NCBI GenBank assembly: GCA_036375075.1 | Contig: DASUSN010000052.1 | Span: 26,195 to 90,194, forward strand | Source of the DNA: Thermoanaerobaculia bacterium | GTDB lineage: Bacteria > Acidobacteriota > Thermoanaerobaculia > Gp7-AA8 | Length of the DNA stretch: 64,000 bases | Direction of reading: 5' to 3' | In this document: piece by piece, positions 9,391-17,170 of the stretch | Position numbering within the stretch: position 1 is the first letter of the stretch | Layout: each line of letters opens with the position of its first letter | The notes under the pieces: model-generated | Seen by the model: only the letters and a program-made list of their open reading frames with translations | Told to the model about the DNA's origin: nothing | Databases searched by the model: none | Made by a program: the position numbers and the translations under genes

Positions 9391-10899
9391 ATGCAGCCAA
9401 TGCAAGACCGGTACGATGTCGTCATTCTCGGGGGCGCCTTCAGCGGCGCGTCCGCCGCGATCCTGCTCCGCCGCGAGTGCCCGGACCTCAGCGTGCTGAT
9501 CGTAGAGAAGGCCGAGCGCTTCGACGAAAAGGTCGGCGAGGCCACGACCGAGATGTCGGCGATGTTCCTCACCCGCCGCCTGGCCATGTGGCGCCATCTC
9601 GAGAACGAGCAGCTCCCGAAGGAGGGGCTGCGCTACTGGTTCTCGAACGAGAAGGTGACGGGCCATGCGAACGCGAGCGAGACCGGCGGGTTCATCCGCA
9701 GCACGGTGCCGGCGTTCCAGCTTCGCCGCGACGCGCTCGACGAGCATCTGCTCGCCACAGCCGTGACCGAAGGCGCGGAGCTCTGGCGCGGCGCGCGCGC
9801 GACGGACGTGACTCTCGGCGACTTCGACCACAAAATCACGGTCGAGGGCCACACCATCTCTTGCCGCTGGCTGCTCGACGCCACCGGCCGTGTGAACTTC
9901 CTGGGCCGCAAGCTCGACCTGATCGAGCGCAACGACGAGCATCCGACCGCCGCGGTGTGGTGCCGGTGGAAGAACGTCCGGCACATCGACGACATCGCGG
10001 TGCGTGGCGGATTCGGGGCGACCAACGTCGGCTCGCGCCGGCTGGGCACGAACCACTACACCGGCTACGGTTACTGGATCTGGGTGATTCCGCTGCGCAA
10101 CGGCGAGACGAGCATCGGCGTCGTGTTCGACAAGCGTCTGATCGGGCTGCATCAGTCGAAGAACCGGGCCGAGGACTTCATCGCGTTCCTGAAAGCCATC
10201 CCCGCGCTGGCGGAGCTGCTCGAAGGCGCCGAGCCGCGGCTGGAAGACCTGCGGTTCTATTCGCACCTCGCTTACGCGACGAAGCAGTACATGGGCCGCG
10301 GCTGGTCGCTCCTCGGCGACGCGGCGGCGTTCCTCGATCCGTACTACTCGCCCGGCCTCGACCACGCCTCGTTTACCGCCGAGGCGACGGTGGAGATGAT
10401 CAAGAAGGACCGGATGGGCGAGGACCTCACCGCACGCATCGCGGAGCACAACGAGACGTTCGTGCGGTCGTACTGGCGCTTCTTCCGCGCGGTGTACAAG
10501 GACAAGTACTACTACATGGGCGAAGGCGACCTGCTCAGCGCGGCCATGCTCATCGACACGGCGCAGTACTACATCTTCGTGGTGATCCCGGCGTACAAGT
10601 TCCTCAAGCGCTTCGACTGGATGCCCGTGCTGGGCCCGAAGCCGGCGTTCCTCAGCTACCACATGATGCAGGTGTACAACCGCCGCTTCAAAGCGATCGC
10701 GGAAAAACGCCGCGCGGCCGGGCGGGCGGGGGCGCTGAACGACGGACGCCGCATCAAGGTGTACTTCAACCTCGGCCTGGCCCCGCTGCGGATGGTGTTT
10801 CGCGGCATGAAGTTGTGGCTACGCGCGGAGTGGGGCGCGCTGTGGATGCGCCGCGTGGCCCCGACCAAGGTGCCGCAGCCCGTCATCGAAAAAATGTAG
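9391..10899 (+). CDS. FAD-dependent oxidoreductase, flavin-dependent-halogenase-like (502 aa)
   Basis: YDVVILGGAFSGASAA (GxGxxG), GYWIWVIPL (WxWxIP), GDAAAFLDPYYSPGLD. Its TAG stop lies inside repeat family B. Confidence 0.7.
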   Translation: MQPMQDRYDVVILGGAFSGASAAILLRRECPDLSVLIVEKAERFDEKVGEATTEMSAMFLTRRLAMWRHLENEQLPKEGLRYWFSNEKVTGHANASETGGFIRSTVPAFQLRRDALDEHLLATAVTEGAELWRGARATDVTLGDFDHKITVEGHTISCRWLLDATGRVNFLGRKLDLIERNDEHPTAAVWCRWKNVRHIDDIAVRGGFGATNVGSRRLGTNHYTGYGYWIWVIPLRNGETSIGVVFDKRLIGLHQSKNRAEDFIAFLKAIPALAELLEGAEPRLEDLRFYSHLAYATKQYMGRGWSLLGDAAAFLDPYYSPGLDHASFTAEATVEMIKKDRMGEDLTARIAEHNETFVRSYWRFFRAVYKDKYYYMGEGDLLSAAMLIDTAQYYIFVVIPAYKFLKRFDWMPVLGPKPAFLSYHMMQVYNRRFKAIAEKRRAAGRAGALNDGRRIKVYFNLGLAPLRMVFRGMKLWLRAEWGALWMRRVAPTKVPQPVIEKM

Positions 10900-10980
10900 G
10901 GCGCGGCTTCAGCCCGCCTCTCGGACGGGGAGGGGGGAATGCCACCACCCACCGGGGCCGGCTGAAGCCGCGCCCTACAT
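10894..10980. repeat. Palindromic element family B, complete copy
   Basis: ATGTAGGGCGCGGCTTCAGCC ... GGCTGAAGCCGCGCCCTACAT, 21-nt perfect arms with a ~45-nt G-rich centre. Fills the gap between convergent genes (stops at 10897-10899 and 10983-10985). Confidence 0.9.
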
Positions 10981-10982
10981 TT

Positions 10983-15407: not shown

Positions 15408-15428
15408 AGTGCTATAACCCCGCCCCGC

Positions 15429-16496
15429 GTGCGCATCCCCATCACCGGCATCGGCGTCATCGCTCCCGGCGCGATCGGCATCGAGGCCTTCCGTGCGCTG
15501 CTGGCGAGCGGGCAGTCCGCGGTGGCGGACGTCGATCGTTTCGACACCACCGGCCTCTCCGCGCACCAGGCGGCGCTCGTCCTCGACTTCAAGCCGAAGG
15601 AGTTCATCCCGGTGATGAAGATGCGGCGGATGAACGCGCTCTCCCGCCTCGGCGTGGCCGCGGCGAAGCTGGCGATCGCGGACTGCGGCGGCTCGCTGCT
15701 GCCGGAGACGGGTGTCGCCATCGGCACGGCGTTCGGGCCGGTCCAGACGTCCGTCGAGTACATGCAGGAGTACGTGGAGAAGGGCGCGGCCCTGGCGCCT
15801 CCCCAACTCTTCGCGGAATCGGTCGCGAACGCGCCGGGGAGCCACATCGCCATCGAGTGGGGGCTGCGCGGGTTCAACGTGACGATCACGCAGCGGGAGT
15901 CGTCGGCGCTCGCGGCGGCGATGTACGCGGCGACGCAACTGGCGAAGGGGACGGTGCGCGCGGCGCTGATCGGCGGGGTGGAGGAGGCGAACGAGATGCT
16001 GTTCAGCGTGCTCGATCGCATCGGCGCCCTCGCCCACAACGGCACCCCGGGCATGATCCTCGGCGAAGGCGGCGCGGTGCTGGTCGCGGGCGCGGGGACG
16101 CGGAAGCCGTACGGCTGGCTGGCGGGCTTCGGGATCGCGCGCGACACGACGGCGCCGATCTCGGACTGGGGCCACGACGAGAAAAGCGTCGTCACGGCCA
16201 TGCAGGCGGCGCTGGACGACGCGGAGGTGACGGAGGTCGACGCGATCTTCGTCTCGGCGAACGGCGCCCCGCGCGGCGACGAAGTGGAAGCGCGGGCGAT
16301 CCAGGCGCGGTTCGGCGACGCCGTCCCGCTCGTGCCGACCAAGCAGGTCTTCGGCGAGTACGCCGCCGGCGGCGCACTGCAGATCGCGGCGGCGCTGGTC
16401 GCGCTCGACGAAGGCCGCTACCGCAACGTGCTCGTCAACTCGATCTCCGCCGGCGGCGGAATCGTTTGTGCTGTGCTGTCGCGGGAGGCGGCATGA
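15429..16496 (+). CDS. KS-like partner lacking the catalytic triad (chain-length-factor-like)
   Basis: KS fold (ITGIGVIAPGAIG... ISAGGGIVCAVL), but the Cys position reads RESSALAA and the second His motif reads VSANGAPRG. Confidence 0.75.
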   Translation: MRIPITGIGVIAPGAIGIEAFRALLASGQSAVADVDRFDTTGLSAHQAALVLDFKPKEFIPVMKMRRMNALSRLGVAAAKLAIADCGGSLLPETGVAIGTAFGPVQTSVEYMQEYVEKGAALAPPQLFAESVANAPGSHIAIEWGLRGFNVTITQRESSALAAAMYAATQLAKGTVRAALIGGVEEANEMLFSVLDRIGALAHNGTPGMILGEGGAVLVAGAGTRKPYGWLAGFGIARDTTAPISDWGHDEKSVVTAMQAALDDAEVTEVDAIFVSANGAPRGDEVEARAIQARFGDAVPLVPTKQVFGEYAAGGALQIAAALVALDEGRYRNVLVNSISAGGGIVCAVLSREAA

Positions 16497-17170
16497 GCGA
16501 GAAGGTCGTGGCCATCATCCCGGCGCTGAACGCCGAGCGCACCGTGCCTCGGGTCATCGAGGCGGCGCGGCAGCAGATCGAGCCGGTGGTCGTCATCGAC
16601 GACGGCTCCAGCGACCGCACGGGTGAGGTCGCGCGCGCGGCGGGGGCCATCGTGCTGCGGCACGAGGTGAACCGCGGCAAAGGCGCCGCGCTCAAGACCG
16701 GCTTCCGCTGGGCGCGGGACAACGGCTACGACGGCGTGATCACGCTCGACGCCGACGGCCAGCATCTCCCGTCCGAGATCCCGAAGTTCCTGCGCCAGCG
16801 CCAGACCGGCGGCGAGGACCTGATCATCGGCGGCCGCGCGCACCTCTTCGGACAGATGCTCCCGCGCCGCCGGAACGCGAACCGCTTCTCCGCGTGGTGC
16901 ATCGCCAAGTGCTCCGGCGTGCCGATCACCGACTCCCAGAGCGGCTTCCGCTTCTACTCCGGCCGCCTGATCGAGGGGATCCAACTGCGCACCGACGGCT
17001 TCGACATGGAGAGCGAGGTGATCGTGCGGGCAGGGCGGAAGGGGTTCCGGATCGTGACGATCCCGATCGAGCTGGGGTTTGTGGATGGTCTGTCGACCAG
17101 TCACTACAAGCCGCTGAAGGACACGCTGCGGATTGCGTGGACGGTCACGCGGGCAAGGTTGTTCTGGTAG
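16493..17170 (+). CDS. Family 2 glycosyltransferase
   Basis: VAIIPALNAERTV...VVVIDDGSSDRT...NRGKGAALKTG...ITLDADGQH. ATGA overlap with the upstream stop. Its TAG stop is the first unit of repeat family C. Confidence 0.85.
   Translation: MSEKVVAIIPALNAERTVPRVIEAARQQIEPVVVIDDGSSDRTGEVARAAGAIVLRHEVNRGKGAALKTGFRWARDNGYDGVITLDADGQHLPSEIPKFLRQRQTGGEDLIIGGRAHLFGQMLPRRRNANRFSAWCIAKCSGVPITDSQSGFRFYSGRLIEGIQLRTDGFDMESEVIVRAGRKGFRIVTIPIELGFVDGLSTSHYKPLKDTLRIAWTVTRARLFW

Follow-up and report, generated by a model that had tools for sequence, protein, structure and literature searches.

A pared-down, lineage-specific relative of aryl polyene clusters with dispensable predicted halogenases in Thermoanaerobaculia

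Introduction

In aryl polyene (APE) biosynthesis, ApeE is the acyl carrier protein (ACP) that receives the 4-hydroxybenzoate (4-HBA) starter, and ApeJ acts late, in the attachment of the product to its lipid anchor (PMC8253772). The related xanthomonadin clusters carry a dolichyl-phosphate-mannose-synthase-like family 2 glycosyltransferase (GT2) and a variably present halogenase, both adjoining the ketosynthase (KS) pair; a halogenase beside this pair is present in Xanthomonas, with its brominated pigments, and absent in Lysobacter and Xylella, and bromination of the pigment correlates with presence of the halogenase (PMC3691225). Here we describe a locus on a 64-kb stretch of DNA (the window; contig DASUSN010000052.1, 67% G+C) from a Thermoanaerobaculia bacterium (Acidobacteriota), in which genes for an adenylate-forming ligase, an ApeE-type ACP, a protein of predicted hot-dog fold, a KS with a catalytically dead partner and a GT2 lie together with two genes, flav1 and flav2, for predicted flavin-dependent halogenases. 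Compared with the described systems, the locus is pared down, restricted to its lineage, and variable in its halogenase genes in the manner of the xanthomonadin clusters.

Members of the Thermoanaerobaculia, almost none of which have been cultured, occur widely in soils, sediments and communities associated with hosts. Literature searches for Thermoanaerobaculia with aryl polyene and for Acidobacteria with halogenase returned nothing relevant. Short flavin-dependent halogenases such as CndH, PltA and Bmp2 act on carrier-bound substrates, and the WxWxIP motif of the flavin-dependent halogenases is regarded as blocking monooxygenase chemistry. The APE references used for comparison were the apeA-R cluster of Escherichia coli CFT073 and the APE cluster on the megaplasmid of Ralstonia solanacearum, the latter chosen because the best flav2 homologues of cultured bacteria adjoin APE clusters.

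Results

Gene content and layout of the locus

Reading frames were picked by G+C content at the third codon position (GC3), which gave one unambiguous frame per gene; all nine open reading frames (ORFs) between 8.7 and 17.2 kb are real genes, with GC3 of 0.88-0.93 against 67% G+C for the genome. Every gene listed in an initial annotation of the window, made from the sequence alone, was found in its place, and Pfam backs all of the assignments at 8733-17170 except that of the hot-dog protein, which has no Pfam match; the seven other genes from flav1 to GT2 all score above the gathering cut-off. The start codons of the ligase (MFQRF, 12278) and flav2 (MRDVIV, 12331) were refined by means of their orthologues. 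The genes are as follows:

8733-9371, minus strand: DedA/VTT-family membrane protein (PF09335, 2e-21)
9391-10899, plus strand: flav1, divergent protein of the flavin-dependent halogenase family, 502 aa, with a helical C-terminal extension (PF04820 Trp_halogenase, 5.9e-14)
10983-12278, minus strand: short adenylate-forming AMP-ligase, 431 aa (PF00501 and PF13193)
12331-13575, plus strand: flav2, predicted flavin-dependent halogenase of the CndH/FasV/PltA/Bmp2 type, 414 aa (PF04820, 2.4e-35)
13587-13862, plus strand: ApeE-type ACP, 91 aa, DSI serine motif (PF00550)
13859-14233, plus strand: FabZ-fold hot-dog protein, 124 aa (predicted fold)
14220-15407, plus strand: active KS, 395 aa, Cys-His-His (PF00109 and PF02801)
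15429-16496, plus strand: catalytically dead, full-length KS partner, 355 aa (PF00109 and PF02801)
16493-17170, plus strand: soluble GT2 of the polyprenyl-phosphate-sugar-synthase type, 225 aa (PF00535, 2.7e-24)

Because neighbouring genes from flav2 through ACP, hot-dog protein, KS and partner to GT2 overlap or lie at most 21 nucleotides (nt) apart, with the GT2 start overlapping the stop of the partner gene by 4 nt, they are taken to form one operon. The ligase gene diverges from this operon across a gap of 52 nt. Scans of 8600-17400 for promoters and terminators performed no better than on shuffled sequence.

Vertical inheritance of the core and repeated loss of the flavoenzymes

A scan of one genome per species yielded 326 stretches encoding a relative of the KS partner, of which the best 80 were examined. 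All of these come from Thermoanaerobaculia or Acidobacteriota metagenome-assembled genomes (MAGs), at 55-89% identity, and homologues of the partner, flav1 and the hot-dog protein bear the names of MAG proteins of these same taxa. The ligase, ACP, hot-dog protein, KS, partner and GT2 genes stand in the same order in every one of the 80 loci wherever the contig covers them, and the flanks are conserved as well (ProC and DinB upstream; M28 peptidase, ParA-like ATPase, Crp, CDP-alcohol phosphatidyltransferase and trigger factor downstream). Sequence identity of the cluster genes rises and falls with that of their neighbours (r = 0.5-0.86), and the cluster-gene means of 66-83% span the values for trigger factor (73%) and the M28 peptidase (67%). 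From this we conclude that the lineage inherited the locus from its ancestor and that the core is passed on vertically throughout the class Thermoanaerobaculia.

The flavoenzyme genes follow a different pattern of presence. Among 53 informative loci, the window included, 29 carry both, 13 carry flav1 alone, seven flav2 alone and four neither, flav1 thus being missing from 11 and flav2 from 17. These states are scattered across the tree of KS and partner sequences and differ even between close relatives of the window, one of which (L005) lacks flav2, leaving an 11-nt gap between ligase and ACP, and another of which (L004) lacks both genes. Since the identities of flav1 and flav2 follow that of the partner (r = 0.79 and 0.72, respectively), both genes appear to be ancestral and to have been lost many times, and this repeated, scattered loss in turn marks them as dispensable tailoring enzymes.

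Some of the related loci contain extra DNA, in the gap between ligase and ACP, in that between flav1 and ligase, or after GT2. The ORFs in this DNA were considered as a possible completion of the pathway and rejected, as their translations, inspected by eye without a Pfam scan, look unrelated, resembling secreted proteins, peptidases, a membrane glycosyltransferase-like protein and repeat-rich stretches. ORFs encoding tandem peptide repeats were seen in DNA inserted between ligase and flav2 or after GT2 (L037, 434-952; L042, 4123-4509; L064, 11361-11894), and the repeat units, for example MTQCVRS heptads and SSIDKFCQS, point to tandem DNA repeats at the junctions.

The two flavoenzymes

The flav2 protein scores 122.7 bits on PF04820 (cut-off 21) and matches the solved halogenases FasV, CndH, CmlS, ChlB4, Mpy16, PltA and Bmp2 at 1e-61 to 1e-45 (best FasV 8zop, 1e-61, followed by CndH, 6e-61; CmlS, 4e-56; PltA, 2e-49), compared with 1.5e-8 for geranylgeranyl reductase. 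GxGxxG (GGGPAG in the window), WxWxIP (WFWMIP) and FxDPxFSxG are present in 43/43 orthologues, as is the lysine of the PKYG motif, which aligns with Lys76 of CndH. In its PF04820 fold, WxWxIP, FxDPxFSxG and lysine the protein is like CndH (3e1t), FasV (8zop), CmlS (3i3l), PltA (5dbj) and Bmp2 (5bva), and its length of 414 aa is that of the carrier-dependent 'variant B' halogenases; on the NCBIfam model for CmlS it reaches 222 bits against an equivalog cut-off of 900. The nearest homologues in cultured bacteria, at 34-38% identity, are found in Ralstonia and Burkholderia, where their genes sit at the margin of canonical APE clusters. We predict with good confidence from these matches that flav2 is a flavin-dependent halogenase. 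No relevant paper on the FasV structure (PDB 8ZOP) was found in a literature search.

The flav1 protein scores 52.2 bits on PF04820 (cut-off 21) and differs from the solved halogenases in its low identity to them (~18-22%) and in its dinucleotide-binding motif, which reads GGAFSG (GxAxxG) in place of GxGxxG; this variant occurs in all 30 aligned orthologues and, counted over 39, in 37. The initial annotation had credited both flavoproteins with GxGxxG and WxWxIP; the strings that it quoted for the latter (GYWIWVIPL and GWFWMIPIS) are indeed both there, whereas GxGxxG holds for flav2 and not for flav1. WIWVIP occurs in 39/39 flav1 orthologues, and Lys77, WIWVIP and FLDPYYSPG are invariant across the 30 aligned. 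With the exception of the uncharacterised flavoprotein 3nix, all significant sequence matches of flav1 in the PDB are halogenases (best CmlS, 2e-18), as are the top 45 Foldseek matches of its AlphaFold2 model, led by PltM (6bza) and CtcP (7xgb), with which flav1 shares a helical C-terminal domain. The proposed grouping of both flavoproteins with halogenases, and not with geranylgeranyl reductases, is thus upheld by the PDB sequence matches and, for flav1, by the fold matches, and flav1 is probably a flavin-dependent halogenase. The catalytic lysine, which had been suggested as a further check, can be recognised in flav2 by its alignment with CndH, whereas Lys77 of flav1 aligns one residue off the CmlS lysine; the flav1 model has a mean predicted local distance difference test (pLDDT) score of 64, falling below 50 in the Lys77 region, which is too poor to place a catalytic lysine. 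On NCBIfam models flav1 stays below every cut-off, with 89 bits for the QhpG monooxygenase, 78 for CmlS (cut-off 900) and 77 for the geranylgeranyl reductase family. There is no flavin reductase gene within the 64-kb window.

The ketosynthase and its inactive partner

Alignment bears out the earlier description of a KS with an intact triad and a KS-like partner without it. The KS has Cys (ATACASAG), His (DAHHPT) and His (NAHGTGT), and the partner has Glu (TQRESSA), Thr and Asn at the corresponding positions; T[QH]RE[SG]S is found in 79 of 82 partner orthologues and Cys in none. The KS remains below all NCBIfam KS cut-offs (fabF, 344.5 bits against 493.75; PRK09185, the ApeO/R type, 311 against 407; AmcF, 231.7 against 325). 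Its identity to E. coli FabF is 34%, to ApeO 35% and to ApeR 33%, with BLAST scores of 190, 189 and 187 bits, respectively, which puts it at equal distance from all three. Its best PDB matches are FabF (4e-75) and chain B of 9s5h, with Iga11 (6kxd) at 1e-61 and the actinorhodin KS at 4e-54.

The partner scores 20.9 bits on PF13723, the ApeC-type short chain-length factor family (cut-off 25), and BLAST found no match between it and E. coli ApeC or the Ralstonia chain-length factor (CLF). In an exhaustive search of 1.84 billion representative proteins, only one full-length relative exceeded 50% identity, followed by generic KS-like proteins at ~40%; judged from this search, the partner type is essentially confined to this lineage. 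A tblastn search against plasmids gave FabF-type matches only, at ~28% identity. The protein is presumed to be a chain-length factor. Its best PDB matches are chains B and C of 9s5h (4e-27 and 1e-26, at less than 30% identity), which may be the closest solved analogue of the pair. In the 9s5h heterodimer an active KS (Cys) is joined to a partner that is inactive (chain C, Cys to Val), and the Lys- and Asn-rich sequence suggests a low-G+C organism; a literature search found no paper for 9s5h, and hence neither its source nor its product.

The hot-dog protein

The initial annotation had called this protein a FabZ-like dehydratase. The predicted fold is FabZ-like, as the AlphaFold2 model (pLDDT 83) has only FabZ structures among its top Foldseek matches, at template modelling (TM) scores of 0.65-0.72. 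The remainder of that label fits less well: besides the missing Pfam match, the score on the NCBIfam FabZ models is 35.3 bits against a cut-off of 113, and the GHF loop, which bears the FabZ catalytic His, is deleted in 70/70 orthologues. Invariant among the orthologues are His11 (LPHQIPFR), Asn38, Glu49 (VEAMAQ), Asp70 and Cys72. BLAST against the APE cluster proteins found no match; hhalign matched it weakly to ApeP (E 9e-4), by way of LPH..P and E(A/L)MAQ, and not to ApeI. The protein was also considered as the missing thioesterase, a candidate that was rejected since its top fold matches are all FabZ dehydratases and not 4HBT thioesterases.

ACP, ligase, glycosyltransferase and DedA

The ACP is 43% identical to E. 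coli ApeE and 53% to its Ralstonia APE equivalent, compared with 36% for ApeF and 30% for AcpP. It falls just short of the ApeE family model of NCBIfam (PRK09184, 68.7 bits against 70) and further short of acyl_carrier (34.8 against 70.45) and AmcB (39.1 against 80); its serine motif, DS[IL], is present in 68/68 orthologues. The GT2 shares 31% identity with the ApeJ N-terminal domain (5e-25) and likewise with the APE glycosyltransferase of Ralstonia (3e-24); its best NCBIfam matches, all below cut-off, are PpgS, AglJ and dolichyl-phosphate-hexose transferase. Its gene lies directly downstream of that of the partner and is kept in each locus whose contig reaches that far. No NCBIfam model reaches its cut-off on the ligase, which is 23% identical to ApeH (1e-14) and finds its best PDB matches in oxalyl-CoA, malonyl-CoA, benzoate-CoA and FadD ligases at ~1e-30; from its family and position it is presumed to load the starter acid onto the ACP.

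The DedA gene directly adjoins the cluster in 31 of 45 related loci informative on this point. In loci lacking flav1 it lies directly 3' of the ligase gene and in the same orientation, the two genes overlapping or standing 4 nt apart (for example L046, L059 and L064), an arrangement that suggests a ligase-DedA operon into which flav1 was inserted or from which it was lost. DedA may be a membrane component of the system, perhaps a flippase, that takes the place of a LolA/MMPL system.

Pathway parts that the locus lacks

The initial annotation had remarked on the absence of ketoreductase (KR), thioesterase (TE), LolA-like and MMPL genes, and this holds for the whole 64-kb window; none is found in the 80 related loci either, and no SDR gene is present in them or in the window. 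TE, acyltransferase and export genes could lie elsewhere in the genome. The window and the related loci are also without a second dehydratase gene and an acyltransferase gene, and no cyclase or aromatase gene is present. The cluster had been thought to be minimal, split, or the source of something different. Between the first two options the former is favoured: as the 80 related loci likewise carry no KR, TE or export gene, the locus appears to be minimal by design and not split in this genome. A proline-derived pyrrole starter, as for PltA and Bmp2, was judged unlikely, there being no acyl-CoA-dehydrogenase-type prolyl-carrier oxidase.

Genomic surroundings

The locus is embedded among housekeeping genes (SecA, ProC, trigger factor, ClpX, Lon, Rho, PBP1, and transporters of the Mla and MacB types). 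Upstream, at 1400-6000, the window contains ~4.6 kb of extra DNA relative to two related loci (L001 and L002) in which SecA is followed almost directly by ProC. Its ORFs include one for an 895-aa signal-peptide protein without a Pfam domain (2080-4767), one for a 155-aa product that resembles a lipoprotein (4789-5256), and a short one (5421-5735), in whose place L002 has a nucleotidyltransferase gene (PF01909). Between DinB and DedA, at 7452-8726, lies a gene for a highly acidic signal-peptide protein with a faint POTRA match (E 0.007), which tblastn found in four closer relatives only (L005, L006, L010 and L014), a lineage-restricted insertion. Downstream, two minus-strand genes at 17241-20095 overlap by 19 nt; one encodes an M28 peptidase, the other a ParA/MinD-like ATPase of 436 aa that has a long extension at its C terminus, and this pair is kept directly downstream of the cluster in most related loci. 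A further stretch, 47638-57748, has an ordinary arrangement unrelated to the locus: genes for an HlyD-type adaptor, a pair of ABC ATPases and a pair of large MacB/FtsX-type permeases stand in tandem, and those for sigma-54 two-component regulators come after them.

Discussion

We read the locus, at a probability of roughly 0.45, as a starter-primed, minimal assembly line of the type II polyketide synthase (PKS) or fatty acid synthase (FAS) kind, related to the APE and xanthomonadin systems, with optional halogenation and with a product destined for a membrane lipid. As judged from family and context, the ligase would activate a carboxylic acid starter and load it onto the ApeE-type ACP. This starter would most likely be a phenolic or aryl acid, because two halogenases are ancestral to the cluster. 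A heterodimer of the KS and its dead partner (Glu for Cys) would extend the chain with malonyl units, ketoreduction would be borrowed from housekeeping FabG, and dehydration would be carried out by the FabZ-fold protein or by housekeeping FabZ, giving an unsaturated chain. The CndH-type flav2 would halogenate a carrier-bound, electron-rich head group and the PltM/CtcP-like flav1 could add a second halogen or act on the released product, both steps being optional because the flav genes have been repeatedly lost. Finally, the GT2, possibly with DedA, may help to convey the product to, or anchor it on, a membrane lipid, in line with the proposal for ApeJ.

Several observations weigh against this scheme. 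The hot-dog protein is without the FabZ catalytic His, the matches of the ligase are generic and carry no substrate signal, and the window contains no aryl-starter genes (chorismate lyase, XanB2 or tyrosine ammonia-lyase). As dedicated KR, TE and export genes are absent, polyene formation would have to rely wholly on housekeeping enzymes. The partner, a 355-aa full-length KS homologue (Cys to Glu), has no detectable similarity to the 240-aa ApeC, and the KS is equally distant from FabF, ApeO and ApeR. Moreover, we know of no biochemical demonstration of halogenase activity for the APE-associated flavoenzyme clade.

The alternative that survives best, although we consider it unlikely, is that the product is not a polyene. 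Few, non-reduced extensions followed by cyclisation might give a phenolic lipid (an alkyl-resorcinol, acyl-phloroglucinol or pyrone) that the halogenases then decorate, or there might be a single condensation and cyclisation, on the model of the type II PKS-like enzymes of cispentacin and coronafacic acid and of those proposed for the flavoaffinins; the His-less hot-dog protein would in that case be a cyclase, decarboxylase or release factor and not a dehydratase. The order of ACP, hot-dog protein, KS and partner is, as we take it, reminiscent of cfa1-cfa4. A non-polyene product would give meaning to the absence of a KR from all 80 loci and to the invariance of His11, Glu49, Asp70 and Cys72 in a hot-dog protein from which the FabZ His is gone, and it accords with a full-length partner, as in aromatic and other non-APE type II systems, and with flavoenzyme matches that are best for halogenases of phenolic polyketides (PltM, phloroglucinol; CtcP, tetracycline; FasV). 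The ACP and KS also have sub-threshold NCBIfam matches to AmcB and AmcF of the cispentacin pathway, and a ligase, ACP and KS/CLF dedicated to one condensation have been proposed in the flavoaffinins (bioRxiv 10.1101/2025.02.08.637243). However, the KS scores FabF and the highly reducing Iga11 (1e-61) above the actinorhodin KS (4e-54), the partner carries Glu where aromatic chain-length factors have Gln, the locus is without a cyclase or aromatase gene, the scores on the AmcB and AmcF models lie far below cut-off, and the links of the ACP, GT2 and flav2 lead to APE clusters.

A second possibility, compatible with the starter-primed reading, is that the core functions as proposed above and one or both flavoproteins do not halogenate, flav1 especially being a hydroxylase or other flavin adenine dinucleotide (FAD) enzyme. 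This would suit the degenerate GGAFSG motif, the ~18-22% identity to solved halogenases, the alignment of Lys77 one residue off the CmlS lysine, a model that is unreliable exactly there, the lack of a flavin reductase gene nearby and the closeness in structure of the uncharacterised 3nix. We nevertheless regard it as improbable, given that Lys77, WIWVIP and FLDPYYSPG are invariant in flav1, that its significant sequence matches and top 45 fold matches are halogenases apart from 3nix, and that WxWxIP is held to block monooxygenase chemistry.

Lastly, the locus might be a branch of primary lipid metabolism that makes a special acyl chain for an (outer-)membrane lipid, with the flavoproteins as lipid-modifying oxidoreductases and with GT2 and DedA acting on a polyprenyl-phosphate or glycolipid carrier, as could be argued from its class-wide, fixed site among housekeeping genes and a conservation like that of trigger factor and the M28 peptidase, from a KS equally FabF-like and ApeO-like, from the FabZ fold of the hot-dog protein, from the conserved CDP-alcohol phosphatidyltransferase gene 3.7 kb downstream, from the adjacent DedA coupled to the ligase, and from the about equal, sub-cut-off scores of flav1 for QhpG, CmlS and geranylgeranyl reductase. 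We regard this as equally improbable, since the KS, ACP and hot-dog protein fall below the cut-offs for FabF, AcpP and FabZ, an adenylating loader and a KS partner that is catalytically dead typify specialised and not primary pathways, flav2 is more than 40 orders of magnitude nearer to halogenases than to reductases or monooxygenases, WxWxIP and a conserved lysine are kept in both flavoproteins, and a primary pathway would not tolerate the repeated loss of two enzymes, even though the core itself is never lost.

That the locus keeps one chromosomal place across a class suggests a product of importance for the envelope or for stress physiology. It further illustrates how far an APE-like system can shrink, namely to a loader, one ACP, a KS with a new type of dead partner, an atypical hot-dog protein and a GT2. 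As relatives exist with both, one or neither of the halogenases, they form a ready comparative series for the function of these enzymes and for the question whether these bacteria supply halogenated lipids to soils. A more far-reaching outcome, to which we assign low odds, would be a class-wide, halogenated pigment or membrane lipid other than an aryl polyene, made through a new KS/Glu-partner pair and a His-less FabZ-fold enzyme without a dedicated reductase, and handled by DedA and GT2. Such a lipid would be a taxon-specific organohalogen biomarker of Thermoanaerobaculia and an unrecognised microbial source of organochlorine or organobromine compounds in soils and sediments. Should the product be a plain pigment of the aryl polyene type, the result would be a useful annotation and not a surprise.

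Comparison with known systems

With the APE clusters the locus has in common an adenylating loader, an ACP resembling ApeE, a FabF-family KS with an inactive partner, a hot-dog protein and an ApeJ-like GT2, and, like it, the members from Ralstonia and Burkholderia carry a gene of the flav2 type for a flavin-dependent halogenase-like protein at their edge. The APE clusters differ in having two or three KS and both ApeI and ApeP, compared with one KS and one hot-dog protein here, and in possessing a KR (ApeQ), a TE (ApeK), an acyltransferase (ApeD), LolA-like proteins (ApeL/N), an MMPL protein (ApeM), a second ACP and a methyltransferase, none of which is encoded at the locus, so that ~10 APE genes are missing. 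Their ligase, ApeH, is only 23% identical to that of the locus, and their distribution is patchy, whereas the locus is chromosomal, syntenic and class-wide. By similarity, then, the ACP, GT2 and flav2 tie the locus to the APE systems, and the partner and hot-dog protein are of a different kind. The APE- or flexirubin-like character proposed in the initial annotation consequently stands for the ACP, the GT2 and the genomic context of the flav2 homologues, and not as membership of the canonical type, given a partner unlike ApeC, a KS as near to FabF as to ApeO or ApeR, and a hot-dog protein without a convincing match to ApeI or ApeP.

The type II PKS clusters for xanthomonadin and the Lysobacter yellow pigment, likened here from their published description, share with the locus the GT2 by the KS pair, the variable halogenase, an acyl-CoA-synthetase-like loader and an ACP. 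They differ in having their own KR, two dehydratases, acyltransferase, exporters and LolA-like gene, and in a KS partner (ORF16) that is a short hypothetical protein, whereas the partner here is full length. A full-length inactive partner alongside a FabF-like KS is found likewise in the ishigamide pair Iga11/12 (6kxd), in 9s5h and in AmcF/G of cispentacin; of the cispentacin type, AmcB and AmcF are matched below cut-off and the partner has no AmcG-type match. Relative to primary FAS, the KS, hot-dog protein and ACP are all below the equivalog cut-offs for FabF, FabZ and AcpP. Aromatic type II PKS have a chain-length factor with Gln at the Cys position, where the partner has Glu, and the locus is without their cyclase; its KS is also nearer to FabF (4e-75) than to the actinorhodin KS.

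Measured by these similarities, the locus falls outside the canonical APE clusters, primary FAS, the aromatic type II PKS and the cispentacin type alike. Notwithstanding these differences, we do not regard it as categorically new, and our assessment is that it is a pared-down, lineage-specific relative of the APE systems with dispensable predicted halogenases.

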